Shown here one piece after another: positions 30,005 to 64,000 of a DNA stretch of 64,000 nucleotides (positions are counted from its first letter, which is position 1; each line of letters starts with the position of its first letter). Made by a program: the position numbers and the translations under genes. This DNA is from Candidatus Bathyarchaeota archaeon (GTDB lineage: Archaea > Thermoproteota > Bathyarchaeia > 40CM-2-53-6): NCBI GenBank assembly GCA_963833125.1, contig CAWHWX010000032.1:1-64000 (forward strand), given 5' to 3'. Below the pieces are notes generated by a model, which did no database searches, was not told where the DNA came from, and saw only the letters and a program-made list of their open reading frames with translations.

Positions 30005-31227
30005 TCAACGCCACCTTCCCCAAGCCTCCCCAACGAACCTCCTACTCTCCTTAGGTAGAGAATAAACAGCAGTTGCGCACGCCAGAATCGATGGTCCGGA
30101 GGCAGCCATCCTTTCCTTCAGTAAGGCTTCCCAAGGCTGAAGTTCATTCGCCATCGACTCCAGCAGCTCGTCCGCGTCTTGGCTTAGAGTCCAGAAAAGA
30201 CTCTCGTTTCCTATGGTCGAGGACAATATCCGCCGCTTCCTCGGTTATGGCCAAATTCTTAACCAACCAATCTTTCAGCTCGGTTAGCGCTCCGACGCCT
30301 CTTCCCTGCGAGAATAGTACAGCCAATTTGATTCTTGTTGGGAGTATGTCCCAAGCATACTCTACTTGGTATTCCAAGTCCAGATCGAGTCCCTTTTCTA
30401 AACTCGCCTTCTGAGAAGATCAAGGGTAGCGGAGGAAGCGGTTCCATACTACCTACGGGGAGATCTACCTTCAGCCGATTATGCGCACACTTCTTCCGAC
30501 ACTCTGTCTCTGGCACTTGGCCGTTGAACCCAAGTTCCTTTGCCTTCCAAACCTCCTTGATGACCGACTGGCTTGGAACGTATTTCTCCTTCACAATCGA
30601 GAACGTGGCGAGCCTCGGGTATACGAGGATGGTTTCGGCGGCGCTTTTTATGAGGCGAGGAGAAAATTTTGGCGATTCACCTTCAAGTCGCTCTCTAAGA
30701 AGATAGACGCCGAACTGTTCGGCTATGCCGTTGTAGAACATTGCTTGAAATTTATACGCTGGAGTTGTTTTCGCGGAGTCCTTCGCTTCAACTATTATGG
30801 GCATGCCGTTTTGTTCCGTCAAGGCGATGAAATCCGGTCGTGCGGTTCCAGCCAGGTCGGGGTGGCGGCCTTCCCCCCTACCAACGATCGTCACGGTTTT
30901 GTACGCGCCCTTGAGACTCTTGCGAATCTCATCCATCCCTTCTACGGACTGAGTAGCGATCTGCGCAAGATACTCGTTAACCCTAAGCTCTGGGATCGAG
31001 TGGGCGATTTGTTTCAAAGCCTCGTGTTTCGGGAACCCTTGAAGGCTTAGCTTGACCGCGGCTTCACCGATCTTTCCTATAATTGCGGGCTCCGCTATCC
31101 TCCGTTGTTGAATTTGCTCTGCCTCACGGGTGGTTCTGATTGCTCTGTAGGCCTTGATGGCCACGATCTTCGGGCATCTACGATAATCGTAGAGATCCTC
31201 TCGGGAGACGGTGAAGATTGAAGTCAA
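30005..31227 (-). CDS. Cas4-like PD-(D/E)XK nuclease with C-terminal extension (frameshifts)
   Basis: DLYDYRRCPK, ARPDF, IVEAK, FQAMFY, CRKKCAH; continues in ORFs 30144..30377 and 30005..30226. Confidence 0.65.
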
Positions 31228-34657: not shown

Positions 34658-34769
34658 GCCTCGGTGGCTCAGCCTGGTAGATTACCTATACGGTAACTGG
34701 GAAGCGGCCGCCTCGTAACTCACGCAAGAAAGCGGCAGGTCGCGGGTTCAAACCCCGCCCGAGGCTCCA
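34658..34769 (+). tRNA. tRNA-Thr(CGT) with a D-arm intron (~34681-34702) and a canonical 37/38 intron (34718-34730), encoded CCA
   Basis: Spliced 77 nt: GCCTCGG TG GCTC AGCCTGGTA GAGC G GCCGC CTCGTAA GCGGC AGGTC GCGGG TTCAAAC CCCGC CCGAGGC TCCA; TTTAA box upstream. Confidence 0.92.
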
Positions 34770-34790: not shown

Positions 34791-34855
34791 TGTAGATTCT
34801 CATACTGTTTGTCAAATTCTCATACACCGTGTCATTTCTCTCAAACTGCGTGTCA
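34791..34855 (+). repeat. Tn7-family transposon end: 8-bp terminus + three TnsB-type sites
   Basis: TGTAGATT, then CTCATAC-TGTT-TGTCA, CTCATAC-ACCG-TGTCA and CTCAAAC-TGCG-TGTCA at 20-21 bp period; candidate TSD GCATT at 34786-34790. Confidence 0.8.
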
Positions 34856-35057
34856 CTGCGGTTGTTGACTTAATCTGATAAGCCAACTAGAAAAGAGAAA
34901 CGCCATCCCGCAATTGTCTTCTACAGTTACGGGGAGCTAGCCATGATAGTCCACAGATAGATTGAGGAGGTTGCGGGACTATGAATGATTACTCGTTGGA
35001 TCGATAAGCGCTAGTTTTAAGCGGTTGATGCGTCACTATCAGAAGTGTTTGCCCGCC

Positions 35058-36128
35058 ATGAACCCGAAATTCGTTGATCTCTTCTCGGGCATTGGCCTCG
35101 GATCTTTGGGTCTCGTTAGAGCCGGGTTCGAGATCGCTGCGGCAGTAGATATTGATCCAGAAGCGTGCGCGGTCTATAAGGAGAACCTTGGAGTCGAACC
35201 CATTGTGGGTGACCTGCGGCACTTATCGGGGTCTGACATACTGAAACGGATCGGTCTCCGACGATGGAGAATTATCGCTGTGCGTGGGTTGTCCTCCGTG
35301 TCAAGGGTTCTCAACTCTGAGGAAGACGCGGCTCAAGAAATGGGAGAGAGATGGGCGCAAATCGCTGCTGAAAGTGTTTGCCCAGCGCGTGTGGACGAGC
35401 TCTTTCCGAAAATCGTAGTTTTCGAGAATGTGAGAGGAATAACACTTGGACAGAACCGCAGATTCTTGAAGGATTTTATGGCTCACATGAAGCGTCTCGG
35501 TTACTATCTCGACTTCAGGGTCTTGGACTCGGCGTATTACGGCGTGCCCCAGCACCGGCTCAGATTCATCCTAGTAGGGAGCAGGGAACTTCCTCCGAGT
35601 CTTCCGGAGGAGACGCACTCGAACCCGAGGTCTGACAACGAGAAGCCGCGGTGGAAGACCGTCAGGGACGCGATCGCAGACTTGCCCCCCCTTGAAGCCG
35701 GTCAGAGAGACGAAAACATTGCGCTTCATGAGGCAGCCGCACATTCGGAGAACGCGCTCAGAATAATATGCAGTATCCCGGCAAACGGAGGCGGGAGAAA
35801 GAGCCTTCCCAAGAAACTATGGCTGCCGTGCCACAGGAGGCTTGCGAAGAGGAAGCAGCGCGGAGCGGAGAGCATCTATGGGAGGATGCGGTGGGACGAG
35901 CCTTCCCCGACTATAACCACCAGAAGTCACATTCCAAGCTGCGGCCGATTCGTACACCCTTCGCAAAACCGTGGCATCACGCTGCGGGAGGCAGCGCGGC
36001 TGCAGAACATACCAGACGACTTCAAGATTCGGGCACGTGCCAAGGACCAAGCCGCTATTTGGATTGGCAACGCGATGCCACTTGCCCTGGCAGAAGCGCT
36101 AGGCCGGGAAATAATTCATCTCATTTAA
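35058..36128 (+). CDS. dcm: DNA (cytosine-5) methyltransferase (compensating internal frameshifts)
   Basis: DLFSGIG, catalytic GCPPCQGFS in a shifted frame near 35290, FENV, GVPQHR, LREAARLQ, IGNAMP. Confidence 0.92.
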   Translation: MNPKFVDLFSGIGLGSLGLVRAGFEIAAAVDIDPEACAVYKENLGVEPIVGDLRHLSGSDILKRIGLRRWRIIAVRGLSSVSRVLNSEEDAAQEMGERWAQIAAESVCPARVDELFPKIVVFENVRGITLGQNRRFLKDFMAHMKRLGYYLDFRVLDSAYYGVPQHRLRFILVGSRELPPSLPEETHSNPRSDNEKPRWKTVRDAIADLPPLEAGQRDENIALHEAAAHSENALRIICSIPANGGGRKSLPKKLWLPCHRRLAKRKQRGAESIYGRMRWDEPSPTITTRSHIPSCGRFVHPSQNRGITLREAARLQNIPDDFKIRARAKDQAAIWIGNAMPLALAEALGREIIHLI

Positions 36129-36159
36129 GCGTCCGCCCAACTATACGGCATTGGTCTGA

Positions 36160-36591
36160 ATGCCGCGCCGAAGGGACAAGTTCTCGAAGGCGAAGCGCAG
36201 CCTAGTCATGTCCCAAATCCGGAGTAAGAACACCGGGCTGGACGTTTCGATGCGGAGAACTCTGCGGAAGGCCGAGATCAAGTTTGAGGCTTACCCCAAA
36301 ATGTACGGCAACCCCGACTTCCTAGTCGAACAATGCATCGCTCTGTTTTGCGACAGCAGTTTCTGGCACGGACGAAACTGGAGAAAACTGAAGCAGCAGC
36401 TCACGAATGGTTCGAACGCGAAATACTGGGTCGAGCACATAGCTAAGAACAGAAGCCGAGACCGGCTCGTGAATGCGACGCTCCGAAGGCACGGGCTCAA
36501 GGTGATCAGGTTTTGGGATGATGAAATATTCAAGCGTCCAGAGGCTTGCGTGAGAAGAATTAAAGCCGCCAAGCGGCTTATGTCGACTTAA
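36160..36591 (+). CDS. vsr: Very short patch repair endonuclease
   Basis: RSLVMSQIRSKNT, GNPDF, FCDSSFWHG, NRSRD. Confidence 0.92.
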   Translation: MPRRRDKFSKAKRSLVMSQIRSKNTGLDVSMRRTLRKAEIKFEAYPKMYGNPDFLVEQCIALFCDSSFWHGRNWRKLKQQLTNGSNAKYWVEHIAKNRSRDRLVNATLRRHGLKVIRFWDDEIFKRPEACVRRIKAAKRLMST

Positions 36592-36612
36592 GCAATTGAG
36601 AGTGCGAGTTGC

Positions 36613-38614
36613 TTGACCGATCCTCATTCGCCATATGTGATGACGATCTCCCGAACGACCGTAGACAAATTGGGAATCAAACTGTACGACAAGGCGTCCG
36701 CCGTGGTTGCGGAACTCATAGCGAACGCCTACGACGGAGACGCCGAGAACGTGACTGTAAAGATACCACTAAACCGCTGGCTGTCCACAAAGTCTGAAGG
36801 GAAGGTGGTCGATCAGGGCCTAGAAATATCCGTTGAGGACGACGGGCACGGAGTAGAGCCCGGTCGTGTCAACGGCTTTTACCTCACGGTGGGAAAAAAC
36901 CCTCGAGAGGACCCCGGGAGAGGGCCGGTTTCGCCCGAGAAGAAGCGGCCGATATTCGGGCGCAAGGGCATAGGTAAACTCGCGGCCCTTCGGCATCTGC
37001 AAAATCATCGAGGTTGATTTTACCGGAGGAACGAAAGACGAAGCGAATCCAGCGCGGGAGTATCGTATCGCGCACTTCATCCTGAACTATGACGAGATAA
37101 ATTTCGACACCGACGAGCCCTACTACCCGAAGGTTGGGAAAGATGACGGCAAGTTATCGACCAAGAGAGGAACGGTCGTAACACTCAGAAACTTCCTCTA
37201 CAGACGCACTCCGGACGAAGAAACTTTCCGTCACCAGCTACAGCGGATCTTCGGCCTCCAGCTCCCGGATTTCAAGATCGTGGTCGAGAACACCGAGACA
37301 GGGAACAAATTCGTCGTCGGTCAGCTCGATGTTGAGATCGAGGAGGAGACGAAGATCACGGTGGACGACAGGCCCGTCGAGATGCCTGACCACTCTATCC
37401 TGCCCGTCAGCGGATACGTCGCTTACGCCAAGAAGCCCTACAAATACGAGGAGGTGGCAGGGGTGCGGATCTACGCTAGAGGAAAACTCGTCTCATCAAC
37501 GAGAGATTTCGGACTGAAGGCAGGGTTCACAGGAGAACACACGCTAAGGTCGTACCTGACAGGCGAGATACACGCGGACTGGCTAGACGATGAAGAGGAT
37601 CTCATCCACACGGGTCGCCAAGACATACTATGGGACTCAGAAAGAGGAGAGCCGTTCAAGGCTTGGGGGCAGACGCTCCTCAAAGAGCTCGGAAAGAAAG
37701 CATGGACTCCGATGAAGCAGAAAGCTTACAAAGTGTTCCTTGAGAAGTCCGACCTTGAAACCAAGGTTTGGGATCGATTCGGTAAGACACCTGTCGCAGA
37801 TACGGCCATGGCTCTCGGCAAGGCCATCGGCCAGATTGCCGCTATAGAAAGCTTAGACGATCCAGAGTATGTCAAAAGACTGACTGAGATTGTACTCACG
37901 ACAGCGCCCCATAAGATGCTCGTAGACACACTCACTGAGATCGCCGAGACGGCGGTCGAGGGTCCGCTGGATGTCGTCGTCGGGCTGTTCAACGACGCGG
38001 GACTCGCAGAAGCGGCCTCGATGGGCCAGATAGCCCTTGAGAGAGTCGATGCCATCGAGAAGCTCGAAGAGAAGCTCGGTGCTAACCCTCCGGGGTATGA
38101 GAAAGAGCTACAGAAAATTCTGGAAAAATCTCCCTGGCTGATGCACCCGGAGTGGACAGTTCTTCAAGCGAATAAGCCATTTGAAGAACTCCGCACCGCC
38201 TTCGAGAAATGGTACGAGCTCAAATACAACAAGAAGATAGCCACGAAATCGATTGATTTGCAGACGAAGCCGGATTTCATAATGCTCGCGGTTTCCACCA
38301 CCGTGGAGATCGTGGAAATTAAGAAGGCACAATGGGCGCTTACCGACGAGGAGTTCAGCAGGCTGCGAGGCTACTACGACGCCATAGAGCAGTTCATGAA
38401 GGACAACCCGGATTTCAGAAAAGAATTCCCGCGAACACACCTCACACTCATCTGCGACAAAGTGAACCTCTCAAGAAACATCCAACTGGCCTTCGAGAAA
38501 CTAGAGGGCGATGGTGTGTTGACCCGGAAGACTTGGTGGGAAACGCTAGCAAAAACGAAAAAAGTACACGAACAGTTCTTAGAGCAACACCAGCGTCCAG
38601 CAGCGCCGCCTTAA
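36613..38614 (+). CDS. GHKL (HATPase_c_3/MORC-like) ATPase fused to C-terminal PD-(D/E)XK nuclease (frameshift near 36990)
   Basis: ELIANAYD, EDDGHG, GRKGIGKLA; C-terminal EKELQ..L...PWL, KPDF...IVEIKK. Confidence 0.8.
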
Positions 38615-38692: not shown

Positions 38693-38851
38693 TCACTTAG
38701 GCTTCCTTCGGACAATCATTGCGCTATCAGTTATTCCTACTAGAACAAGATCTCCTTCTTTGATCGAGAGTGCCTTCGCAACCTCCTTTGGGATTGTCAT
38801 TCTTAACGAACCGTGGACGCGATTAATCTTAACCTCGAATTCTATTGGCAT
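38693..38851 (-). CDS. AbrB/MazE-like DNA-binding protein
   Basis: GSLRMTIPKEVAKALSIKEGDLV. Confidence 0.85.
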   Translation of the reverse strand: MPIEFEVKINRVHGSLRMTIPKEVAKALSIKEGDLVLVGITDSAMIVRRKPK

Positions 38852-38866
38852 CTTAATCGGCAAAAC

Positions 38867-38942
38867 TTCCATATACAAACCATATACTTAAATAACGCCA
38901 AATACTAGGTATTTGGATAGTATATGGGCAGGATGTATGGAA
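38867..38942. promoter_or_regulatory. Nested palindrome in divergent promoter (putative AbrB operator)
   Basis: CCATATACT..CCAAATAC-TAG-GTATTTGG..AGTATATGG. Confidence 0.55.
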
Positions 38943-39068
38943 ATTGCCAATCGTAATTGTCGAAGCGAAGAATCGTGATGCGTGGGAAATTGCTGAAGAA
39001 ATTCGCGTAATCCTCGGTCAGCGAGCCAAGGTTGTCGAAACATAGCGGTGGATTTCCTCAAGGAGGAT

Positions 39069-39766
39069 ATGAATACTCACAACATCCGTGATTTGTGCAC
39101 ATAATCAGGATGCACGTACGTGTTCGAATTGCATTGAACTGCTACCCGCCTCATTCTGGGACAGACTAACGTGGAGGCGCTTCTCTCCAGGCATTGGCAT
39201 CTATCATGTGACCGAACTGACACAATGCTTGGCTCGAGCATACTTCGAGAGAACCAAACCCACTCAAGAAACGGTCGAATCCGCATGGGCAAAATTGCGA
39301 GGTTCCTTGCTTCACTACGCGGATAGGTCACTAGGCTGGAGCGAACTTCGGTGTCAAAATGAACTTCGAGCACGATAACGAAACAATCACAATTGTTGGC
39401 CAAGTTGACGCGTACGATCCCGAAACAGCGACCATCTATGATCTTAAGACATCACGTTTTGTTAAATGGCAACATGAGAAAGGCTTCCTCCCTCGACAAA
39501 ACCATCGCGCACAGATCCAGTCCTATTACACCATGTTGGATTCGTACGCTATCCCAATAAAACGGCTTGTCTTGATCTATGTGGACGACAAGAATATCCT
39601 CGCCAAAGAAGTTCCACTAGGTTACCGCAAGGAATGGATGATCCGGAGAGCTTCGATTCTGCATAGGGCGTTGAGTGGGAGTCAGATTCCTAAACCCGAA
39701 CCTGACAATTGGTGCAAGTACTGTCCGTTCGTTCAAGTCTGCCCGGCGAAGGGAGGTGCAACCTGA
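39069..39766 (+). CDS. Cas4-like PD-(D/E)XK nuclease with Fe-S cysteines (frameshifts near 39087 and 39350)
   Basis: GGAGG SD; HVTELTQCLARAYF, RGSLLH, GQVDAY, IYDLKT, QIQSY, CKYCPFVQVC. Confidence 0.8.
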
Positions 39767-40994
39767 ATGGGTGGATGCCTCCCCGTACACCCACAGCCAC
39801 GTGAGGGTGAATCGCTCACATCATGGATTGATCACGTTACACGATGCAATGGCATTACAATTCGACAGTTGTTGTCACATTGGGTGAGCGAGGCTGACTG
39901 GAGATACAGGGACCTTGACTTTCTGAAAATAGACGAGCTGAGAATACTTGCCGACCTTGCACGCGTTCAAGGTGGAACGGGCAAGCTGCGCAGTATGGTA
40001 CTAACACCCTGGAAGGCGGTATTCTCAGAACCTAGGAACGAAATGGATCGCAAAGGTTGGGTTTGCTCGCGAGCGACAATTCGATATTGTCCAATCTGCT
40101 TACAAATTGAAGAGCCATACTTCAGGTTATCGTGGCGCCTCCTCTTCCTTCCCCTCTGCGGCCGTCATGGGGTAGTGCTGCAAAGGGGCTCCTCGAGAAT
40201 TATGCCAAATCCGAGTGAAGCGCCTCTGATTAAACCAACTAACTGCACCCTATTGTCACGTTTTAGTTCTTCTGGAATTGGAATTCTTGAATCACAAGCT
40301 CTTTCCCAGGGTTTTGGCTGGTCAGATAGTGGACAGGAATTTTTCCTTGTCCTTCTTACCCTGGTGAGGTACCTCAATCTCTACTTGCAACGCCGAACCG
40401 CTTTGGATAAGCGATTTGAAAGCCCACGGACTGCCTACCGCACCGCCTTTCGATTGGCGAAAGAATGAGGCTGTAGCGGTGCTTCTGATTGAAAGAGCTC
40501 TTGGTCTAGTTGAGGAATGGCCGAGAAATATCGGGAGGTTTGTCCGAGCGAATAGAACCCGCTTCAACAGATTACGCGTGGAGTATGCTGCCCACTTCCC
40601 TAAGACACTAAGGGCTCTGAACGCGGAAAACATCGAACATAATGCTATCAGCAGCGTTGAACATGAGATTGAAAATTTACCTGATTACAAGGAACGCCCA
40701 GACGAAGACCGAGTAAGACGCGCCGTTCAATACTTGCTGGAAACAAACGTTCCAGTCTCCCTAAGAGAGGTCGGTAAAATCACTAAAGTGAGTTTCGAAC
40801 AGCTGAAGAACGAGGAAAAACTGAACAAAATCGTACTAGAAGGAAAGCGAGTGTTCAGATTTAAGCAAGAAGATGAGATTCAAAACGCCATTACGGTGTT
40901 GCGTGGAAGGGGACTATATCCATCGGTCGGGGCTATTGCTACATATCTTGGAAGATCTCATCGATATCTGCATTCACATAAGATCAGAACATGA
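39767..40994 (+). CDS. tniQ: TniQ/TnsD-like target selector with C-terminal HTH-like extension (frameshift near 40400)
   Basis: LPVHPQPREGESLTSWI, YCPICL...YFRLSWRL...CGRH; starts immediately after the Cas4-like stop (TGAATG). Confidence 0.82.
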
Positions 40995-41013: not shown

Positions 41014-41751
41014 TTAATCCTTCAACGCAGAAACCGCCCAATCAATAGAGTCCTGGAGGCCACTGCCAGGACTCTTCTTCTCAATGAGTACGGCAGCCGT
41101 CTTTATGTTGACTTTTTCATTGATAACCTTCAAAAACTGTTCCAATTTTGAAAAAGCATCCCGGGTCGAGCCATCTTCGACGACGACCATCAACACGCCT
41201 TGTAAACCCTCCCATATGTTTTCCACATGACCCCCGTCCTGAAGGTCCAGCAGCTTGCCTCCTAAAGCGAGGATATCTTCATCCACAAGATTGTCTAATA
41301 CAATAATCCCCAGGAAACGCGCATTGCCTCCTACCGAAATACTATCGTCGTAAGTATATACAATGTCAAAATTGTGGATGAAAGTTGTACCTTTCACCTT
41401 AAGATGCTCATCAGTTTGAACATTGAATGATGTTCTTACATTCAGCAGTTCTCCTATGACGAAACCTCTAGTCGGGTAGTATAACTTTGCAATAATACTT
41501 TCAACAACGGATTTTCGCTTCGGAACAACTCGATAGATTTTTCTTCTTCCTTCGCTTTTGATCGCTACCAGAGACAGAAGCCTTAATCGCTGCAATACGA
41601 GATGGATTGACGGCTGCTTTTTGTGAAGCGCTTTTGCGATCTCGGCCTCAGTAACTCCGTCGGTTTCGATTATGAACTTGGTCGATTCGGCTAAGACCGG
41701 GCTTTCCCGCAGGATAGCATAGAGCTCAGCCTCACTGATCCCTTGGCTCAT
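41014..41751 (-). CDS. ArsR-like wHTH regulator with C-terminal restriction-fold-like domain
   Basis: EAEIAKALHKKQPSIHLVLQRL...EGRRKIYRV; VKGTTFIHNFDIV. Confidence 0.6.
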   Translation of the reverse strand: MSQGISEAELYAILRESPVLAESTKFIIETDGVTEAEIAKALHKKQPSIHLVLQRLRLLSLVAIKSEGRRKIYRVVPKRKSVVESIIAKLYYPTRGFVIGELLNVRTSFNVQTDEHLKVKGTTFIHNFDIVYTYDDSISVGGNARFLGIIVLDNLVDEDILALGGKLLDLQDGGHVENIWEGLQGVLMVVVEDGSTRDAFSKLEQFLKVINEKVNIKTAAVLIEKKSPGSGLQDSIDWAVSALKD

Positions 41752-41845: not shown

Positions 41846-42658
41846 ATGCCACGCACCTTCCCAGTGAAACCAAACTACGGAGTCGAGATTGGTGTTATGG
41901 AGCCGGTTGAGATTTCTTCGTCGAATGAACCTGCGAGGAAGATTCGGCCGAACTACAGGAGTTCCACAGGCTTCTACGTTACTCGTAAAGGAAAAGCACT
42001 TGCTTTTGAATCAAAACAAGAACGAGACGCACTTCTCACCCTTGACTTTGACCCAAGTGTGCGCGATCTTGTCACTCAGCCACTGAGAATTGGAAACTAT
42101 GTGCCGGATTGCCGTATAGAAACGACTTTTGATCTGACCGTTATTGTGGAAATAAAGTCAGAGAGCGAACTTGTTGAGAAATGGATAGAGCTATCAGCGA
42201 AGTATTCTGCAGCAAATGATTACTGCTTCGCCAAAGGCTTTGAGTTTGTGTTTGTTACTGACTTCTACATCTACTACTCAGAACAATATCGACTCAATAT
42301 ACTGAAAAAAGTAAGATTTCTTGGAGCCCGTCCAGAAGAATCCGACGAACAAGTTCAGGAACAACTCGTTAAGCTCCTAGGTCAGATGCCATTATCCGTC
42401 GGTTCACTAGCCAAGAAGATCGAAGCGCCACTGGACGAGGCCAACAGAATTCGAGAAATTTGCAGACTTCTCTGTTCTGGTTCAGCTCACATTTTCAAAA
42501 CCCCCACCCCACACCTCAAGGACTGCTTAATCTCAACCACCGAGGAAGGATGTGACACATTCCGTTCCCATGTCTTCAGCTTCGAGCAAATGAAAGAACG
42601 ACTTCGAACCCATCCTTATCGACAACTCGAAGGAGGATTTGCCAGACTTGTTAATTGA
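41846..42658 (+). CDS. tnsA: TnsA-like endonuclease
   Basis: FESKQERD, TQP, YVPD, IVEIK. Confidence 0.85.
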   Translation: MPRTFPVKPNYGVEIGVMEPVEISSSNEPARKIRPNYRSSTGFYVTRKGKALAFESKQERDALLTLDFDPSVRDLVTQPLRIGNYVPDCRIETTFDLTVIVEIKSESELVEKWIELSAKYSAANDYCFAKGFEFVFVTDFYIYYSEQYRLNILKKVRFLGARPEESDEQVQEQLVKLLGQMPLSVGSLAKKIEAPLDEANRIREICRLLCSGSAHIFKTPTPHLKDCLISTTEEGCDTFRSHVFSFEQMKERLRTHPYRQLEGGFARLVN

Positions 42659-44636
42659 ACCGGGGTCTAAGATCTCGATCAACGACCAAGTCTTCACAGT
42701 CATAGACGGGACGGAAATCAACAAAGCAGAGATCAAGAGCGACTCGTCCGGACATGTATATTGCGTAGATCTCATGAATAAGATACGAACAGGGGACGCA
42801 CTATCCCTCATAGGTTCAGATCGACAATCTAATCGCCTATCGCATTTGGGCATTCTCTCACTCACCGATGAACAGCACGCTGAGGCGCGACGCCGCTACG
42901 TAGCTATCCTCGCAATCCTCCACATGAAGAAACGAACCTCCCATGAGAAAGAGGAAATACGGAAGCAATTCGCAAGGCAGCTGTGGAGACTCGCTGTTTC
43001 CTCAAGGACGATCAAGCGGTGGATAGAGAGATACACACTATCCGGATTCAAAGGTCTCGTAACAAGCGAGTCTTTTGGAGGAAAGGGAGGAACAAGAACC
43101 GATAAAGAATCCGAATCGATCCTTCAAAAGGTCATAGAAGAACAATATTTCACAAAGCAACAAAAGAATAAAGCGGAAGTCTACCGCGAATTCGAATCAG
43201 AGAGCAATCTTAAAGGTCTTACAAGTGTAGATGAGAACGGAAACGTGCGGCCGCCAATACCGCGCTCGACAATTTACCGTAGGCTAGCCCTTCTCGATCA
43301 AAGAGAAGTCACGTTGAGGCGTCTAGGGAACAGGGCCTACGTGCAAAAGCACTGTCTCAAAGGGGGAAGGTATCCTGACGTGGAATATCCATTAGAGACA
43401 ATTTTAATCGACCATACGAAGCTTGACATAATCCTGCGAGATCCAATAACAAGAAAACCCATTGGTAGACCATGGATCACAGTTGCGATAGACGCATTTA
43501 GTCGATGCATCTGGGCATTCTACCTAAGTCTGGAACCACCTAACGCAGACACGGTTGGTTTAGTAATTATAATTGGTTGCAAGATCAAAAGTCAACTTGC
43601 GAAGTCACTCGGCTGCGAATCTGAATGGCCTGTCTATGGACTCCCGTCCAAATACACACTGACAATGGCAGAGACTTCAGAGCAAAACAACTGGAAAAAG
43701 GCTGTGAAGCACAAGGAATCTCCCTCGTCAGAAGACCAATCAAAACGCCTGAGTTCGGCGGAATTATAGAACGCTTCTTCGGCACACTCAACACCGAACT
43801 AATCCACAACTTGCCTGGAACAACTCGCTCAAACGTAATGAGTCTGAAGAACGGAGACTACGATCCAGAAAAGGAATCCCTCCTTGAACTGGAAGAGCTT
43901 GAACACCTCATCGCTAGATTCATTGTAGATCAATATCACAATACCCCGCACCGCGGGAATCAATACGACTCCCCTAAGAAAATGGAAAGAGGGAATTGAA
44001 GAAAATGCAATTGCCCCTTCTGAACCCGACGATATCGAACGTTTCAGACAAGATTTCCTCCCCTATGTCGAGGGCCCTAACGGAACCCGTCAGATCGAGC
44101 GAGATGGGATACACTACCTGGGATTGGTCTACTATGCAAGCGAATTGAATCACTTAACACGTAACGAAAACGGCGGAAAAATACCAAAAGCATATTTCAT
44201 TAAATATGACCCACAAGACCTTCGATACGTCTACATTTACGACGACGAAAACGACTGCTACCACGCACTAAGTCTCAGTGAACGCCCCATTGAGCCTTTC
44301 ACTAAACGCAACCTCGAGATCAGCTCAAGGCAAAAGCGAGAGACGGCCACCGACAAACTCGATCAACACAGACGCCTAGACGCAATCCAAGAACGACGAG
44401 AATTTCTCACGAGCAGGATTGAGGGGAACAAAAGAGCTCGTAGAACAATGGCCTCAGAAAGATCGGAGCGCGGTCGCCGTTCTCGCACAATCCCTCTCAC
44501 AAATCCAATGAATGCCTCTGACGAAGACGATAATGTGAACAACGATTCTGAGAGCTCGGATAACACGTCGTCTGAAATCGTATACTCCACCGATGACCAA
44601 GAGGAAGAAGTTGAATCGAATGAAGATCTACAATGA
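42639..44636 (+). CDS. tnsB: TnsB/TniA Mu-like DDE transposase (frameshifts near 43640 and 43960)
   Basis: IDHT (D), GRPWITVAIDAFSR, HTDNG (D), GIIERFFGT (E), YHNTPH, KYDPQDL. Confidence 0.92.
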
Positions 44637-45511
44637 CACAAATTATTCAGGTTGATCATTTAACCGCCCATGTCAGATCACGATTAAACAGATCTATTGA
44701 TGAGCGAATCAAGGATATTCAGGCGCTGACATATGTTCCATATCCCAAAGCCGAATACGTTCTCTCATTAATGCATCGACTCTGCTCCGAGCCAATGTCG
44801 GGAAGACCTCGTGGACTTACCATTTCTGCGGTTAGTGGAAACGGCAAAACCACCATAACAAATACGTTCCTCTACAAACATCCGATGCGCGAGACAACTG
44901 AAGCCAGAATTATACCCGTCTTGAAAGTAGAGGCACCACCGGTTCCCAGTGAGAAAAGGATCCTCGGCGGGATCTTGAATGGTTTCAGCTCAGGAGACGC
45001 CATCGAAGCAGGCGACGTCGAGACGAGAATGCGACGAATCAAGATCCTTGTCCATAGATGCCAAGTTAAACTAATGGTCCTCGACGAATCCAATAACTTG
45101 CTCGCGGGAACAGCAAGAGCAATGGAAGAATGCTGCAACGTATTGAAGTACCTCTCCAATCAACTGGGCATCCGAATTGTTCTCGTTGGCACAAAACGTG
45201 TTGAAAACGTTCTGAGGTCGGATCCACAACTCCTTTCGCGCTTTCCAATAGTTGAATTGCCGTTATGGAAAGACGGGAGATGTTACCGGAGATTTCTCGA
45301 AATGCTCGAATCGGCACTACCCTTGGCAAATGCCAGCGATCTGGCGTCCGACGAGAAAGCTTTCGCTCTCTTAGAACACTCCCACGGAGTACTGGGCGAC
45401 ATTGTAATGACCGTCAAAGACGCAGCGATTTGCGCTCTACGCAATCACGAAGAACGCATAACCACGGATATACTGAAGTGCCCCTTTTCAGTTCTCAAGA
45501 AAAGTCGCTGA
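44633..45511 (+). CDS. tniB: TniB/TnsC AAA+ ATPase
   Basis: Walker A SGNGKT, Walker B MVLDE, DPQLLSRF. Confidence 0.92.
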   Translation: MTQIIQVDHLTAHVRSRLNRSIDERIKDIQALTYVPYPKAEYVLSLMHRLCSEPMSGRPRGLTISAVSGNGKTTITNTFLYKHPMRETTEARIIPVLKVEAPPVPSEKRILGGILNGFSSGDAIEAGDVETRMRRIKILVHRCQVKLMVLDESNNLLAGTARAMEECCNVLKYLSNQLGIRIVLVGTKRVENVLRSDPQLLSRFPIVELPLWKDGRCYRRFLEMLESALPLANASDLASDEKAFALLEHSHGVLGDIVMTVKDAAICALRNHEERITTDILKCPFSVLKKSR

Positions 45512-45550: not shown

Positions 45551-46538
45551 ATGATGGAAACAGATATCGCAGTAGGACAACTCATTCGACAGAGTCTATG
45601 GCCAATACATCCGCCACCTTTACGCCGGCGAGTCTTTGGAATCGTGGATAACTAGACAAGCCTATGCAAACTGCTGCTCTCTCAACACTTTCTTACCCAG
45701 CTATCTCAAGACATATCCCACGCATTCAGGGAGAGAGATTACTCTCGACTTAGACTTCCTAAACGGGAATGACGAATCTCTTCAAATAATTAGTGGCCTT
45801 ATCGGTAGGAGACTTGCTGGAAACATGACGTTGCACTTCTTCAGGCACGTCTTAGATATAGGCAGGGAAGCTGAGAAAGCCAAAGGGCGATGGCGAGGCC
45901 CCTCTACTTGCGGATTTAATTGGGTTGTTCCTAGGCGTGATGGACGGATGTATTGTCCAGTATGCTTAGCTGGAGACAAGACTACTCACTTTCGCTTAGC
46001 TTGGCGACTAAGGTTCGCACCGATTTGCGTCAAGCATAAGGTGCTTCTGGAATCCGATTGCGGTCATTGCCACCATCTGATGAACCATTTCGATGATAAC
46101 GCCCATTACGATATAGGAAAATGTCCACAATGTGAATCATCACTTAGTTCTGCGCTACCCAAAGCACTTGATTCGAATGAGGACGGTTACGTTGCTATTT
46201 CGAACCTTTTGGGATTGCTCTATTCCACGGTGGGACTTCAAGAGATTGGTTGGGAAGAAAGTAAGGCCGACCTATTTGCTAGCCTGAAGCTCGTTGTTCT
46301 AATGTTGCTAGCCACAGCCAAATCTCCAGTTCCCGCCTACCGAAGAACTTTTCGTGATGCATCTATGATCTATGGATTAATGGGACGGGCGTGGAGAATG
46401 TTGCTAGATTCCGCAGACATTCAACAATTCATTGCGAATCATCGGGGGCTTTTCCATTACCTTACACGCAAAAGATATCCCTACGTCTGTCCAAAATATT
46501 TCAACAGATACACGATGATTATTGCTACGCCTTCATGA
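45551..46538 (+). CDS. tniQ: TniQ family protein (frameshift near 45620)
   Basis: WPIHPPP..GESLESWI, YCPVCL...FRLAWRL...CVKH..L...CGHC, CPQC. Confidence 0.88.
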
Positions 46539-47127: not shown

Positions 47128-47646
47128 TTGAATACTATCAAGGACTTAGCCATCGCCAAATCCAACTCTCCACGATTCTTCCAACAAACCTTCCAACAAT
47201 GCCTCACCCAACTCGCGGAAGGGTGCCACTCCCCAACCGACTTTGAAATCGCGAAACAGCAAATCCCGGAAATCGTCACGGAAGCCGTCCAACGGCTACG
47301 CGAAAGAACCGTGTCCCTAGCGAACCTGGAGTACCGAGTTGAACTAAGAGAGGACCCACACGAAAAGTTGACGTCGAAGAGGCTGCCGCAACCCTACCAG
47401 GTGGCTTGGTTGCTCACGAAGCAGGGAAAGGCTCCGGTCTGCGGAGAGATGGTCGATTTCGCGAAAGTGTTTCCCTTCAGATTGCAGGGAAGACAATTCA
47501 CCGTCAAACCCACCCCACAAATAAACTCGAAGGAGATCGACGTAGAGGACTACATCCTCAGCCTACTCGCCTCACTATCACAGGTCTTCGATCCGATGAA
47601 TATTCGACTCAAAATGAATCCGACGACCCTCTCAGATTTCGTTTAA
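47128..47646 (+). CDS. Hypothetical protein
   Basis: 172-aa ORF; no motif recognised. Confidence 0.4.
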   Translation: MNTIKDLAIAKSNSPRFFQQTFQQCLTQLAEGCHSPTDFEIAKQQIPEIVTEAVQRLRERTVSLANLEYRVELREDPHEKLTSKRLPQPYQVAWLLTKQGKAPVCGEMVDFAKVFPFRLQGRQFTVKPTPQINSKEIDVEDYILSLLASLSQVFDPMNIRLKMNPTTLSDFV

Positions 47647-49575: not shown

Positions 49576-50244
49576 TGAGGAAACTGGATTGGCAGTTTCC
49601 TTTCCCTTTTTTATTCGTTCGGACGAATCATTCCTTTGTGAAATAATTCTGAGTAGTCCGCATCAGTAATGAGCCACCATCTCAGTTGGCCGCTATTATC
49701 GACCACGAAATCAAATTTGAACTTGACGAATCCGCTAAACAAACCATTGGCGATCTTGCGACCACAGCGTCCGCGTTCAATTTCCGCTTCTAGCAGTTCT
49801 TCTAAGCGAAGCACTCGTGGCGCCCTGTGGGAACGCATTAGTCGGGGGAAGCGTCCATTTTGCTTAGTCATTGATGACAACACTATCGCGATTAGATATA
49901 TGGAGTTTAGCTTCTCTTAGAAAAATAGGACAGAGGGTATGGAACCAGACGGAGAAGGGAAAATGTAATGTGATTCGCAGTGGGCGATTCAAAGGAACTC
50001 GGTAAACTGATCGTCGAAACTCTGAATCTACAGGTCGGAGATACTTACGAACTACTGACCTGTAAAGGAAACCCATACTACGTGTTGGTAAAACGAATTC
50101 CGGCAGGCATACCAGACGTACCGAAATGGAACGAAGAGGTATCGGGAATGGCGATCGCTTAGAACCGTACTAAGGCGTTTGCGCCACCATAACAGGCGGT
50201 GTGACTCTGCAAAGGATTCCATAAATCCTAGTCGGGATCCAGAT

Positions 50245-50472
50245 TCAATAATTTTCATGTTCCGAGAAAGCAAGTCGGAACCCGCCCACGTTGTAGATGA
50301 CCTCATGCTCCTTAGGCTGTTCGCTTCTTATCTCAACAACTATTGGTATACCTTTTTGTTCCATCGCCGCTTTCACTTTCTCAACATTATTTACTTTCAC
50401 TGAGAATCCACGCACCCCATCAACATCAAGGCGTGGTTCAGTTTGTTCGATAAGTTCAATACCAAACTTCAT
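50245..50472 (-). pseudogene. VOC family fragment
   Basis: FSVKVNNVEKVKAAMEQKGI; N-terminus appears missing. Confidence 0.45.
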
Positions 50473-50536
50473 TGCAAGGATTCAAGCGGGGATATCAAGT
50501 ATTGTTGGAGCTTAACTCTTCGGGTCAAGCAACTGA

Positions 50537-51853
50537 GTGCCCATAGGTTTGATGTTTGGAATGACCAACCGGACTCTGGAAAGGATTCTTCAACTAGAAA
50601 ATCAGCATTCTACGTATAGAAGCCACTGTCTAAATCTCATCGTGTCCGAAAATGTAGCTAGTCCTTCAGTCCGTAGGAGGCTCTCATCTGACTTCGAATG
50701 CCGCTACGGAAATGCGTACGCTCCCACTTTGTCCACCGATTGGGAGGCTTTCGCCAAGGTGAGGTGGTACGAAGGTCTTCAGTACGTAGAAAACGTTGAG
50801 AAGATATGTAATACGTTGCTACGGCAACTCTTTGATGCGAAATACGCTGACTATCGACCATTATCAGGAAGCTCAGCGATTTTGGCGAATTGGCTGAGCT
50901 TAACGGAACCTGGCGACACGATTGTCACAACCCGTGATTATGACGGTGGACATGGATCAGGTTGGGACGATTGCGCAACGATTTTGGGTCGAAAGGTCAC
51001 ACATTGGCCCTTCGACTCTAATGAGTTTAGAATTGATGTCGACAAAGCGGAACGTATGATTCGACGGACTAAACCTAAACTCCTAGTCTTCGGTGCCAGT
51101 CAAATCTTGTTTCCCGCTCCAATCAGTGAACTAAAGTCAGTCGCTGATGATGTCAGCGCATACTGCGTCTACGACGGCTCACATGTTATGGGGCTCTTAG
51201 CAGGAAAACGTTTGCAAGATCCTCTCAGAGAAGGTGCAATCGCTTTGTTCGGAAGTACGCACAAGACATTTCCCGGCCCACAAGGGGGATTGATTGTATC
51301 AAACGCTCAACATGAGATTTTGGAGAAGTTAGACAGAACATTGAGCCCCACCTTGTTTGACAATTATCACCAACACCGAGTTGCAGCCCTAGCCGTAGCT
51401 TCTGCAGAAATGATTGCCTTCGGTCAGGCCTATGCGGATCAGATAATTAGAAACGCGAAAGCCCTTGGACAAGCCTTGAATGAGGAAGGCTTCACTGTTG
51501 TCGGGTCACACAAAGGATTCACCCAGACACATCAGGTATTGTTGGACGTGAGACCTCTGAAGAGAGATGGTCGTGAATTAGCAAAAGTCCTTGCCTCATG
51601 CAATATCATAACAAACCAAATTCATCTTCCCGGCGACCCTTCTGAAGACAGATTCGGAGGAGTTCGATTGGGGACGGCCGAGGTCACAAGGACTGGAATG
51701 AAAGAAAATGAGATGAAGACGGTGGCTTCGCTGTTCCGGTTGTGCTTGATCGATCGCAGAGGAACAGGCCATGTTAAGAGGCAAGTCATTAAATTCAAGG
51801 CGCGATTCAATCGACTAAAATACTCTTTTGATGAAGGGCTCCCTGCATACTGA
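50537..51853 (+). CDS. glyA: Serine hydroxymethyltransferase family protein (divergent paralog)
   Basis: LNLIVSEN, GGH, YDGSHVMGL, GSTHKTFPGPQGG, GVRLGTAEVT. Confidence 0.88.
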   Translation: MPIGLMFGMTNRTLERILQLENQHSTYRSHCLNLIVSENVASPSVRRRLSSDFECRYGNAYAPTLSTDWEAFAKVRWYEGLQYVENVEKICNTLLRQLFDAKYADYRPLSGSSAILANWLSLTEPGDTIVTTRDYDGGHGSGWDDCATILGRKVTHWPFDSNEFRIDVDKAERMIRRTKPKLLVFGASQILFPAPISELKSVADDVSAYCVYDGSHVMGLLAGKRLQDPLREGAIALFGSTHKTFPGPQGGLIVSNAQHEILEKLDRTLSPTLFDNYHQHRVAALAVASAEMIAFGQAYADQIIRNAKALGQALNEEGFTVVGSHKGFTQTHQVLLDVRPLKRDGRELAKVLASCNIITNQIHLPGDPSEDRFGGVRLGTAEVTRTGMKENEMKTVASLFRLCLIDRRGTGHVKRQVIKFKARFNRLKYSFDEGLPAY

Positions 51854-51874
51854 ACCTCAGGTTCTAAGAATTCT

Positions 51875-52192
51875 TCAAATCTTCATCAGAAGAGAACCAT
51901 ATCCTTGCACTTGCGCCCTCACCTTCGCAATTCGAAGCCCATTCCACATAGTCGCTTGGTTGGCGCTCACAACAGGTTTACCAAGATCCTCTTCCAAAGG
52001 TTGCAGTACTTCAGCAGTAGGCAATGCATTGCATGCAGTGAAAATTCCATCCGAGTGTTTTGTATCTATTTCCTTGCCGAATTCGTATCCACTATCGGCT
52101 AGAAACCTCTTCAAACGCAGATTAACGTCATCCCCATAACACGTTCCGACAGCGACCGTCCGTATCCCGAGTTCTTTCAACGCCCTTACCAC
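51875..52192 (-). pseudogene. Deleted remnant of Asp/Glu racemase (maleate isomerase) family gene
   Basis: DGIFTACNALP...LGKPVVSANQATMW; internal and 5' parts missing. Confidence 0.65.
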
Positions 52193-52323
52193 TGACGATG
52201 AGGTCGTCGAACCGGGACACCCGCCCCTTCATGACGTTTTGGATGAGTTCATGTCGTTTTACGGACTACTAGACGTCGTCAGTTCATGAAAACCCAACAT
52301 GTCGTCATTCGATTTGCGCTCAA

Positions 52324-53673
52324 TTATTTGTAGCAGAGAAGGATGGAAACGACGTGTTTGATTGCCAAAAGGAAGTCTTGCACCCTAATGTTTTCATTCG
52401 GTGCATGAATATTCGAACCATAATAGCCTGCGCCAATTTGTACAGTCGGTTTCTTCATTATCTTGACAGGAACATACATTGCACCGGAAGCTATACTATT
52501 AGGGTATACCACGGGGTCGATACCATAGACTGATTTTGCCGTTTCTATTGTTAGCCTTACTATCCCTGACTCGGGGTCAGTTCTGGCTGGATAGAATTTC
52601 ATTAAGGGTCTAATTTCAATATCGTCAAATCCGAATTTCGTTAGGTGCACTTGAAGTTTGTGCAGTATGTCTTCAGGGTCTTGATCTGGCACAAGGCGCA
52701 TGTCTATTTTAGAGAAGGCTTTGCTCGGCACTATGGTTTTCGGTCCCTCGCCTTCATAACCACTCCGGATGCTATCAATGTTGCAGGTTGGATCGAAGAA
52801 GAGTCTTTTTTTGATGTTCTCGGGGTTTTCGTCTAAGGGGATTTGTTCTATTCCTGCCAGCAGCTTTTCTCTCTGAACGTCGAAAGGCAAGATTTCTAGC
52901 AAACGCTCCATAAGTTGCGTTGGTCGACGAATATCATCGTAGAAACCGTCAATTCTTATTTTTCCGTCCGATAATTTGATGCTGGCTAAAGCCCAAACTA
53001 TTCTCCAAGCAGGATTGCATAGCAACGGGGCTTTGCCCGAGTGTGCGTCCGATCTTGCCCCGGTAGCATGAAGGTCGACACATAGCATCCCTTTGTTCCC
53101 CAGCTCAATCGTCGGTCGCTCCGAAGTATCGCGCTCGCTTCCTTCCCAGATTACAGAATCTGCTTCAAGTAATTGTCGTTGTTCTGTTACGAATGGTGCT
53201 AGATTGGGGCTACCAATCTCTTCTTCTCCCTCTACGATGAATTTGATATTAACCGGGCACTCACCGATCACGGTGAGGATAGAGTGAAGGGCGGCAATCC
53301 TTGACGCAAAAGTCCCCTTGTTATCGGCGGTCCCCCTACCGTATATTTTGCCATCGCGAATCTCTGGCTCAAAAGGCCCTGAGGCCCATTCGTTGAGCGG
53401 ACCTGGATGCTGCACATCGTAGTGGTTGTAAAATAAAATCGTGCCACACGGAGTTGGCGAACGATATGCCCCGTACACAATGGGATTTCCTTTGGTCTGA
53501 AAAATTCTTGTTGTAAGACCTATTTGGTCCATCATTTCTCGTACCAAGTCCGCGCATCTTTTCACCCCGGTATTTTCAGTTGAGATGCTGGGCTGGTGGA
53601 CAAGTTCCTTCAGGTACCCCAGGTAGCGACTTCCATTGGTATCGATATGGGGTAGCACATCGTGCAACGACAT
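52324..53673 (-). CDS. M20/M25/M40 family metallo-hydrolase
   Basis: YNHYDVQ, GRGTADNKG, EGEEEIGS, HAPNEN. Confidence 0.92.
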   Translation of the reverse strand: MSLHDVLPHIDTNGSRYLGYLKELVHQPSISTENTGVKRCADLVREMMDQIGLTTRIFQTKGNPIVYGAYRSPTPCGTILFYNHYDVQHPGPLNEWASGPFEPEIRDGKIYGRGTADNKGTFASRIAALHSILTVIGECPVNIKFIVEGEEEIGSPNLAPFVTEQRQLLEADSVIWEGSERDTSERPTIELGNKGMLCVDLHATGARSDAHSGKAPLLCNPAWRIVWALASIKLSDGKIRIDGFYDDIRRPTQLMERLLEILPFDVQREKLLAGIEQIPLDENPENIKKRLFFDPTCNIDSIRSGYEGEGPKTIVPSKAFSKIDMRLVPDQDPEDILHKLQVHLTKFGFDDIEIRPLMKFYPARTDPESGIVRLTIETAKSVYGIDPVVYPNSIASGAMYVPVKIMKKPTVQIGAGYYGSNIHAPNENIRVQDFLLAIKHVVSILLCYK

Positions 53674-53965
53674 TGGCGGACTGCTCCTATCGTTAGGTTG
53701 AGACTAATCATTCATTTAAAACCAGACCGGTCAGGATTACGGACTCTTCAGAAAACTGCAATTTCCTGCAGCGCGTTGTACTTCCTTCCGAGAATATTCG
53801 ATAGGTTCTACTTCCTTCCTCGAGACTGGCGCGAAATCTGAGCGTTTCCTAATAATTGCTAGCCCCTCCAGCATCCTACTAGGTTTCAAATACCTTCTGG
53901 GATCCATCTGAATGCTATTCAAAAGAGAGAGTGATTCTTCTTGAGACTTGTAAATGCTTAACCAG

Positions 53966-54700: not shown

Positions 54701-55001
54701 GCTATGCATTGAAGGAACTTGACATAAGTTATTCGGAATGTAAGGGCTTTTTGAATGGTATATCCTCATAATAGCAGAGGATCATCTATATCTTCAATTC
54801 GGCTATCCTTTTGACAGGTTTTCATAACGATGAACATCGAGGTCACTTTTGAGAGCTTTATTCTGTCCTACCATGCGAATGAGATCTCATGATAGGCGAT
54901 TGAGAACTCCTAAATTCTGAAGGCTCGAAGAAAGCGTAGACACCGCGATCAGCGCAAATCGTCTTTTCGAAACGGTTCCAACCAATCGAAACGGCTTTAG
55001 G

Positions 55002-56098: not shown

Positions 56099-56123
56099 TA
56101 TCACGCCCTATCTTACCCACAAC

Positions 56124-63963: not shown

Positions 63964-64000
63964 TCCTGCGCTCGTACTTTTCGCACAACACAACTCATTC

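Follow-up and report, generated by a model that had tools for sequence, protein, structure and literature searches.

Among the closest described counterparts of the locus considered here are the Tn7-like transposons whose modular target selectors were surveyed by Faure et al. 2023 (PMC10293859). The locus lies in a 64-kb stretch of DNA from a member of the Bathyarchaeia (Candidatus Bathyarchaeota archaeon, contig CAWHWX010000032.1, positions 1 to 64,000), referred to as the window, and consists of a 33-residue leader open reading frame (ORF) designated orf33, a Cas4-family iron-sulfur (Fe-S) nuclease, and a TniQ protein designated TniQ1, all encoded beside the core genes of a Tn7-like transposon. 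It resembles TnsD of Tn7 and the TniQ + TnsF pair of Tn6022, as these are described in the available text of that survey, in combining a TniQ protein with a co-opted DNA-handling protein as a putative selector, in the use of a tRNA attachment site, and in the provision of two selectors per element. It differs in the nature of the partner, which is a Cas4 with its catalytic and Fe-S residues kept rather than an inactivated recombinase, Cascade, or Cas12k; in the same available text, Cas4 appears solely within a I-D adaptation module.

A Tn7-like element situated at a tRNA-Thr gene is of a known kind. According to the main text of Thesier et al. 2025 (bioRxiv 10.1101/2025.07.27.667033), 16 archaeal Tn7-family elements include a “Clade V” element from Bathyarchaeia, 15.8 kb in size, in which a fused tnsAB is accompanied by tnsC and tniQ and which adjoins tRNA-Thr; some of the elements are labelled with multiple TniQs. 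The window element shares with Clade V its Tn7-like character, its occurrence in Bathyarchaeia, and its location at tRNA-Thr, and the fused tnsAB recurs in a related element from a second genome of the same genus (G565). In contrast, tnsA and tnsB are separate in the window, and the window core is only 29–45% identical to that of the G565-type element. The terms “cas4” and “nuclease” have no occurrence in the main text of the preprint, although its cargo table (an image) and its supplements could still list Cas4.

Cas4 proteins encoded outside CRISPR (clusters of regularly interspaced short palindromic repeats)-cas systems also have precedents. Solo and mobile genetic element (MGE) Cas4 proteins, found in viruses and casposons, are the subject of Hudaiberdiev et al. 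2017 (PMC5704561), and the window Cas4, which has no cas1 or array association, is a nuclease of this type, located outside CRISPR-cas and taken up by a mobile element. What sets it apart is its coupling to a transposon DNA-recognition protein, as no such coupling is described in the accessible text of that work, where neither “Tn7” nor “TniQ” occurs. Likewise, Cas4 and SWIM are both unmentioned in the accessible part of a survey from 2026 that covers insertion sequences in archaea (PMC13343696), and a full-text literature search yielded no title or abstract describing a Cas4-TniQ or Cas4-IS6 pairing. The cassette of Cas4 and TniQ1 thus appears to be undescribed, as does the broader coupling of this Cas4 family to transposon DNA-recognition proteins.

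Another nuclease offers a different type of comparison. TnsA of Tn7 is the PD-(D/E)XK nuclease subunit of a heteromeric transposase, so that both TnsA and Cas4 represent restriction endonuclease-fold nucleases encoded beside a DDE transposition system, with which TnsA works and Cas4 may work. Cas4 differs from TnsA, however, in having an Fe-S cluster architecture and in being coupled to TniQ rather than to TnsB, and TnsA is also present in both the window and G565 elements.

A Conserved Cas4-TniQ Cassette at a tRNA-Thr Gene

The three genes of the cassette are read in the same direction in the window, with orf33 at 38944..39045 (+), Cas4 at 39088..39766 (+), and TniQ1 at 39767..40994 (+). Divergent from them is a gene for an AbrB/SpoVT-fold regulator (38693..38878 (-); Pfam MazE_antitoxin, E 2.8e-10). 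An earlier note on this DNA, made from the sequence alone, had reported both the divergent AbrB gene and the 33-residue ORF at 38944-39045, and both were recovered, the latter by an ORF scan. It had further reported a Cas4-like nuclease followed directly at its stop codon by a TniQ protein of ~400 residues; the family assignments, the motifs, and the TGAATG junction all hold, whereas the implied single reading frames do not, since each of the two genes is split into two frames in this assembly. A pairing of AbrB with Cas4 as a toxin-antitoxin system was dropped, as the AbrB gene is not conserved with the cassette.

Several lines of comparison identify the nuclease. Its C-terminal piece matches the Pfam families Cas_Cas4 (E 3.9e-07) and PDDEXK_1 (E 1.2e-06), and the motifs GQVD, DLKT, QxxxY, and C...CxxCx5C can be read both in the two window pieces and in the G565 protein. 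The intact G565 Cas4 matches the PADLOC Cas4 profile over positions 9-160 of 161 (E 3.4e-17), and a profile of the family matches PDB entry 4ic1 over its full length (E 0.0021). Because all of the catalytic and Fe-S residues are conserved, with the catalytic motifs (D, D/ExK, QxxxY) and four Cys residues invariant in 14/14 aligned homologues, the protein is presumed to be nuclease-active; this conservation argues for action as a nuclease, unlike the disarmed CRISPR parts found in CRISPR-associated transposons (CASTs).

The Cas4 stop codon abuts the TniQ1 ATG (39767) with zero spacer. The TniQ domain (PF06527) is matched with E 1.4e-15 by the N-terminal piece of TniQ1 in the window and with E 5.8e-20 by the G565 protein, four zinc-finger residues (C108, C111, C131, and H134) are invariant in 11/11 aligned sequences, and sequence matches in the PDB fall in the zinc-finger regions of TnsD/TniQ. 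TniQ1 is TnsD-like and has a helical C-terminal extension, which includes a conserved 90-residue end in which two helix pairs resemble a helix-turn-helix (HTH) but match no Pfam HTH family. The predicted model of TniQ1 has a pLDDT (predicted local distance difference test) score of 69.1, and in a fold search it gave no match at E<=0.001, with the TnsD/TniQ rows non-significant. The small orf33 belongs to no Pfam family, yet its DNA alignment varies codon-wise, and it is conserved with the cassette, being 77% identical in G565 and matched by tblastn at 59-81% identity in 27/59 of the Cas4-relative loci considered in the following section.

Outside the source genome, the complete arrangement is found in G565. 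When 401 genomes of the class were searched with the N-terminal piece of TniQ1, the protein was recovered from two (the source genome and G565, in which the identity is 65% and the frame is open for 405 residues), along with one weak, stop-ridden match. In G565, the order of genes is orf33, Cas4 (199 residues), TniQ1 (405 residues), a divergent winged-HTH gene, a TnsA-TnsB fusion (871 residues), TnsC, and TniQ2, a second and shorter TniQ (286 residues). Both Cas4 and TniQ1 are intact there, with TniQ1 beginning on the base after the Cas4 stop codon just as in the window. The Pfam family PF05621 is unspecific as a marker of Tn7 (59/59 genomes and 13/14 controls have matches), so that only matches at E<1e-20 were counted; among 59 genomes of the family, such strong TniB matches occur only in the source genome and G565. 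The earlier note had named in advance findings that would speak against its proposal, among them an adjacency confined to this contig and the usual occurrence of AbrB-Cas4 in unrelated proviral or plasmid contexts. The first was not found, given the intact orf33-Cas4-TniQ block with zero spacer beside a Tn7-like core in G565, while the second was found in part: none of the 59 Cas4-relative loci has TniQ or TnsABC, the usual partner is a different protein, and an AbrB-like gene is divergent from Cas4 in some of them.

Comparison of the two elements reveals three tiers of identity. The host flanks are the most similar, at 79-94% (rpl3 94%, ferredoxin 89%, DAO 87%, a conserved unknown 80%, and FAD oxidase 79%). 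The cassette follows at 61-77% (orf33 77%, Cas4 61-65%, and TniQ1 61-66%), and the core is far lower at 29-45% (TnsA 32%, measured against the N-terminal part of the TnsAB fusion; TnsB 29-45%; TnsC 32%; and TniQ2 37-40%). The winged-HTH genes occupy the same position in both elements but have no detectable similarity. Because the identities fall into these tiers, the window and G565 loci are best described from their sequences as two different Tn7-like elements at one site that have a much more similar Cas4-TniQ1 cassette.

Metagenomic sequences add to this picture. The closest relatives of the Cas4 in the protein database, P0004 (82%), P0005 (79%), and P0006 (78%), come from contigs of 32355, 4948, and 4029 bases, and the TniQ1 homologues P0065, P0075, and P0073 come from contigs of exactly equal numbers of bases. 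These three contigs probably carry both Cas4 and TniQ1, as judged solely from their equal lengths. The TniQ1-family proteins P0065-P0079 include members from 12 further contigs, and ~27 representatives of that family reach E<=1e-30.

The presumed attachment site in the window is a tRNA gene with introns and an encoded CCA (34658..34769 (+); Rfam RF00005 match at 34658-34766, 40.7 bits). Its anticodon, read by eye, is CGU (Thr). Two apparent introns, one in the region of the D-arm and one after the anticodon loop, are visible by eye both in this gene (34658-34766) and in its G565 counterpart (L087:9558-9666). ARAGORN missed the intron-bearing tRNA in the window as well as at the G565 locus, and the Rfam score is only just sufficient; similar intron-bearing tRNAs at other loci fall below the Rfam gathering threshold, yet they are recovered by BLAST. 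In G565 the block has this same tRNA beside it (again at 40.7 bits), together with the host genes that flank the window element. As read from the sequence, a Tn7-like transposon end composed of four TGT-initiated repeats (TGTAGATTCTCATAC, TGTCAAATTCTCATAC, TGTCATTTCTCTCAAAC, and TGTCACTGCGG) occupies 34791..34861 (+) and begins 21 nt past the tRNA CCA. The corresponding end in G565 has six TGTCG-initiated repeats that start 27-35 nt past the CCA. The fixed short spacing from a conserved gene that is expected of Tn7-like elements is thus seen in both.

The proposal in the earlier note that one of the two TniQs directs insertion to a tRNA gene agrees with these TGT repeats beside an intron-bearing tRNA, and the evidence favors TniQ1 in that role. 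TniQ1 rather than TniQ2 is the likely tRNA-Thr selector because two elements with only 29-45% identity between their cores occupy one site and have a TniQ1 that is 61-66% identical, and because the conserved C-terminal 90 residues of TniQ1 would form HTH-like helix pairs, whereas TniQ2 is short.

Partners of Cas4 in Other Mobile Elements

The Cas4 family is common in metagenomes, with 60 clusters at 59-82% identity among 67 candidates. A sample of 59 loci (55 metagenomic and 4 genomic, with 10-kb flanks) provides a view of the broader neighborhood. TniQ1, TniQ2, TnsA, TnsB, TnsC, AbrB, and the winged-HTH protein were matched in 0/59 of these loci (tblastn with the island proteins, E<=1e-5), although unrelated AbrB-like genes hold the divergent position beside Cas4 in some. 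Nitrosopumilaceae-like Cas4 relatives (34-37% identity) have no adjacent TniQ either, and among viral contigs the Cas4 profile retrieved only 3 loci, at 26-30% identity, and TniQ1 none.

Clustering of the neighboring genes identifies a different dominant partner, c1, a protein of ~175 residues encoded directly downstream of Cas4 in 39/59 loci (at distances from -58 to +785 nt). The two genes overlap by 4 nt in 19 of these 39 loci, and distance is not computable in 4 further loci with c1. According to its alignment and a predicted model (pLDDT 81.7), the protein combines a SWIM-type CxC...CxH motif with a zinc ribbon of the form CxxC...CxxC and ends in a long helix. It has no DDE domain and no significant match in Pfam or the PDB, and a fold search returned nothing at E<=0.001, with only local zinc-ribbon (NrdR) and SWIM (ZSWIM8) rows.

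The affinities of c1 are suggested by three loci (L046/L056 and L054) in which a longer gene occupies its position and which are the sole ones with a DDE domain there. The 381-residue protein of L046 combines a SWIM domain (E 4.9e-4) with DDE_Tnp_IS240 (E 2.3e-19), and that of L054, which ends at the contig edge, combines an HTH with DDE_Tnp_IS240 (E 6.4e-12). Because c1 aligns to the first 107 residues of the L046 protein (29% identity, E 3e-12), it is, on sequence comparison, a free-standing protein related to the N-terminal, DNA-binding part of a transposase of the IS6/IS240 type. Like IS6/IS26 elements, these loci have DDE_Tnp_IS240 in the Cas4 partners of L046 and L054 and short flanking direct repeats, and the terminal repeat ...GCCTGTCGGAAAA of the Cas4-c1 relatives presumably resembles IS26-type ends. 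Unlike such elements, most of the loci have only the ~175-residue N-terminal-like protein lacking a DDE domain, cargo extends to ~10 kb, and 14/23 of those with the terminal repeat adjoin tRNA genes. The window itself has none of these IS6-like features.

Many of the Cas4-c1 cassettes reside in what appear to be elements bounded by terminal inverted repeats (TIRs). The sequence TGTCGGAAAATT (<=1 mismatch) is found 80-370 bp upstream of Cas4 in 23/59 loci. In 14 of the 23 loci (12 flagged by pattern, with L024 and L033 added on visual reading), a tRNA 3' end precedes it by ~12-20 nt; L047 has its tRNA at the opposite end, and 8 loci have no tRNA there. L050-53, L058/59, and L060/70 are near-duplicates. 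An inverted copy is present in 4 loci, giving elements of 1.58 kb (L047:133-1712), 3.4 kb (L030:5107-8474), 10.6 kb (L024:258-10842), and 10.7 kb (L033:103-10776), all bounded by (T/C)AG(C/G)C-TGTCGGAAAATT inverted repeats. All four have matching pairs of subterminal TTAGGNCCTAA and, if the repeat start is set 5 nt outside TGTCGG, flanking direct repeats of 6-8 bp. Within the TIR elements, Cas4 and c1 are at one end, followed by variable cargo that includes restriction-modification (R-M) genes, a radical-SAM protein, and an IS5-type transposase; most lack a recognizable transposase, and the 1.58-kb element holds little beyond the Cas4-c1 cassette. These repeats are absent both from the window and from the surroundings of the Tn7-like element in G565. 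At another place in its genome, G565 holds a Cas4-c1 cassette, accompanied by one terminal repeat and by an AbrB-like gene in divergent orientation.

Several other features of these loci may be recorded. In loci of the orf33 type (L025, L034, L036, and others), a triple repeat of ACGGTAT(G/T)ACGGTATAACGGTAAT and a TATA-like box are located ~60-110 nt upstream of orf33, preceded by a gene of ~56 codons for a ribbon-helix-helix (RHH)-like protein; the window lacks the triple repeat and has the AbrB gene instead. In relatives, the DNA downstream of the same tRNA has accumulated IS5-type (DDE_Tnp_1) transposases and C-terminal fragments of IS6-type transposases (L023:2765-4475; L033:9140-10162).

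Taken with the window and G565, these loci make the Cas4 family look like a recurrent companion of transposon DNA-recognition proteins, namely c1, a full IS6-type transposase, and TniQ1. The junction between Cas4 and its partner is held at 0 to -4 nt (zero for TniQ1, -4 for c1 in 19 loci). Because the partners are DNA-recognition proteins and the junction is kept in this range, the link between Cas4 and transposition seems to be more than neighborhood noise, and the pattern of coupling supports the central proposal of the earlier note, namely a nuclease acting together with the transposition machinery.

Gene Content of the Window Element

Between the transposon end and the AbrB gene, the window element carries an R-M set spanning 35025-38614, composed of a Dcm methylase (35025-36128 (+)), Vsr (36160-36591 (+)), and a HATPase-type type II restriction endonuclease (REase) split between 36613-37017 and 37280-38614 (+), all identified by Pfam, the last also by PADLOC (REase_II, E 1.3e-16 and 2e-08). 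Downstream of TniQ1 and divergent from tnsA is a winged-HTH protein of TrmB/Csa3-like type (41014..41751 (-)), for which the Pfam TrmB match (E 0.0013) is below the cut-off and PADLOC gives a CARF3/Csa3-like HTH region (E 1e-05).

The core follows with TnsA (41846..42658 (+); Pfam Tn7_TnsA-like_N, E 4.7e-07), TnsB in three ORF pieces (42639..44636 (+), comprising 42639-43769, 43625-43999, and 44124-44636), the TnsC/TniB AAA+ ATPase (44633..45511 (+); Pfam TniB, E 6.4e-45), and TniQ2, a short TniQ of 300 residues (45636..46538 (+); Pfam TniQ, E 6.4e-17). As the Pfam matches of TnsB (rve_3 and Mu-transpos_C) are weak, its identification rests mainly on homology to the TnsAB fusion of G565. The two proteins form one 871-residue chain in G565 (L087:12192-14807 (-)), whereas the genes are separate in the window and overlap by 20 nt (41846-44636). 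TniB is 3.6 kb downstream of TniQ1, an arrangement repeated in G565. The synteny of TnsA, TnsB, TnsC, and TniQ is that expected of a Tn7-like element, and TniQ1 and TniQ2 are the only two TniQ-family matches in the source genome. In agreement with the earlier note, no CRISPR-like array was found in the window; Cas1 was not found in the source genome, which is 87.8% complete. The ORFs of the element have no Pfam matches to Cascade or Cas12k, and with no array in the window, the features that define a CAST are lacking.

Beyond TniQ2, the island contains the C-terminal remnant of a gene for a DNA polymerase of family B (PolB) at 47128-47646 (+) (Pfam positions 303-452 of 453, E 2.8e-06); in L036 and L038, pieces 84-86% identical to it are located ~9.5 kb away from Cas4. 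At 52228-52320 (+) there is a short relic that is similar to the Tn7 end repeats of G565 type, with a common 15-mer and two weaker matches, in the orientation of a left-hand end, between a truncated arylmalonate decarboxylase-like fragment (51875-52192) and a peptidase M20 gene. On the other side of the element, a conserved protein of 322 residues with no Pfam family is encoded at 30259-31227 (-), between rpl3 and the ferredoxin gene, with identities of 80% in G565 and 55% in L052/L053.

Interpretation and Alternative Explanations

The interpretation favored here is that orf33-Cas4-TniQ1 constitutes a real and conserved accessory cassette inside tRNA-Thr-associated Tn7-like transposons of Bathyarchaeia, with TniQ1 as a likely TnsD-like selector and Cas4 as its accessory nuclease, an account with roughly an even chance of being correct. 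TniQ1 would recognize the tRNA-Thr site in the manner of TnsD, and Cas4 would be co-produced with TniQ1 and probably bound to it. Cas4 would then serve as an accessory nuclease that processes DNA ends or flaps, either at the target or at the transposon ends; candidate roles include second-strand or flap cleavage, target nicking, end recognition, and recombinational repair.

A number of observations weigh against this account. The known TnsD pathways all operate in the absence of a nuclease partner. TnsA, which supplies the second-strand nuclease in Tn7, is already encoded in the window element as judged by Pfam. Exact patterns, patterns with 1-3 mismatches, short-word BLAST, and 5-mer cluster scans located no inverted counterpart of the transposon end, either in the 64-kb window or in the 34 kb of G565 that were covered. 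The sharp drop in identity at the boundary of TniQ1 and the HTH gene points to separate histories of cassette and core. Moreover, the G565 block is inverted relative to the tRNA, with its TniQ2 side toward the tRNA, and the opposite orientations of the two elements would not be predicted by one shared orientation-specific selector. In a FastTree phylogeny of a 135-residue Cas4 region (rows with <100 residues in the region left out), the TniQ-linked Cas4s do not form one clade, a result whose supports were not inspected and which is too weak to distinguish a single from multiple origins. Finally, placement of the cassette inside the mobile unit relies on synteny and on the 15.8-kb size that the main text of the preprint assigns to an element described in like terms (Thesier et al. 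2025).

The separate histories of cassette and core also bear on a possible, if somewhat unlikely, alternative in which orf33-Cas4-X is a self-contained module for recombination/repair, defence, or anti-defence that rides mobile elements as a passenger, with Cas4 acting outside transposition and tniQ having replaced c1 by recombination in a few Tn7-like elements. Besides the discordant divergence of cassette and Tn7 core, this would explain why 0/59 other Cas4-relative loci have TniQ or TnsABC, why the module has its own upstream regulators (in many loci an RHH gene with the triple ACGGTAT repeat, elsewhere, as in the window, AbrB), and why the neighborhoods are rich in R-M and insertion sequence (IS) genes typical of variable islands; recruitment of Cas4 by mobile elements is a known theme in the accessible text of Hudaiberdiev et al. 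2017 (PMC5704561). It fits less well with the finding that, wherever a partner has been identified, the gene coupled to Cas4 encodes a transposon DNA-recognition protein (c1, IS6-type transposase, or TniQ), and with a junction kept at 0 to -4 nt. Nor does it account readily for a cassette 80-370 bp from a conserved terminal repeat in 23/59 loci, or for an element with both repeats of only 1.58 kb and little else inside.

The state of the genes in the window raises another issue, namely whether the element is still functional in the source genome. Cas4 is in two frames (39088-39378 and 39359-39766) owing to one extra base (+1), which comparison with 14 homologues places in or beside an A-run at 39356-39359; TniQ1 is also in two (39767-40468 and 40416-40994), with one extra C at ~40390-40393 relative to the intact G565 protein. 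If these breaks, those of TnsB, and the missing second end were real, the locus would be a decaying relic with no present function there. The four frameshifts in ~6 kb of element genes, the split REase, the second end not found in the window, and the presence of another Tn7-type end relic (52228-52320) and of the PolB fragment (47128-47646) would be in keeping with such decay.

Breaks are about as frequent, however, in ordinary metabolic genes throughout the window, as would be expected from indel errors in the assembly, and the breaks in Cas4 and TniQ1 are single extra bases in otherwise clean frames. Among 56 ORFs scanned outside the island, ordinary genes are also divided: Dak1 (profile positions 1-115 and 214-313 on separate ORFs), an aldehyde dehydrogenase (three ORFs: 7-197, 202-327, and 350-450), three luciferase-like oxidoreductases (Bac_luciferase), peptidase M24 (3-100 and 103-208), and Ldh_2 (79-284 of 333). 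AzlC is among the split genes as well, which occur in 1-34000 and 50000-64000 of the window, and the DAO gene of G565 is shortened. Because ordinary genes outside the island are split too, the frameshifts of Cas4, TniQ1, and TnsB are probably errors of assembly rather than marks of decay, and a dead element is unlikely.

A broader proposal extends the favored interpretation beyond Tn7. It holds that Cas4-family nucleases represent an unrecognized class of transposition co-factors that are translationally coupled to the DNA-recognition subunits of two unrelated DDE systems, IS6-type and Tn7-like TniQ. The partner would be an IS6-type transposase or a stand-alone SWIM/zinc-ribbon module in TIR-bounded, often tRNA-adjacent elements, and TniQ in Tn7-like elements; Cas4 would act either where the element inserts or on the ends of the element, perhaps by cutting the second strand or trimming flaps. 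Such a generalization is distinctly speculative and, for now, doubtful; if it is true, Cas4 had its own transposon-linked role, parallel to its role in Cas1-Cas2 spacer integration.

Least probable by a clear measure is a fuller version of the mechanism put forward in the earlier note, in which Cas4 would recognize or process DNA ends or single-stranded DNA and recruit TniQ1-TnsC, as a TnsE-like pathway into replicating or incoming DNA, while TniQ2 does the tRNA homing: the two TniQs recall dual-pathway Tn7 relatives, Cas4 enzymes act on DNA ends and overhangs, and the Cas4-TniQ1 coupling is tight and conserved, but TniQ2 is short (286-300 residues) and only 37-40% identical between elements at the same tRNA site, and TniQ1, with its long C-terminal extension and 61-66% identity, is more like a site-specific selector.

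Implications

Tn7-like target selectors are modular and programmable, so that each new selector or accessory factor widens the available toolbox. If the interpretation favored here is true, a catalytically intact Cas4 wired to TniQ represents a new kind of partner for these selectors, and the intact copy in G565 makes the question of whether Cas4 and TniQ1 cooperate directly testable. The parallel coupling of the same nuclease family to a module of IS6-type transposases suggests that Cas4 is generally linked to DNA integration outside CRISPR, which is relevant to the way in which the adaptation module of CRISPR came to be built from parts of mobile elements.

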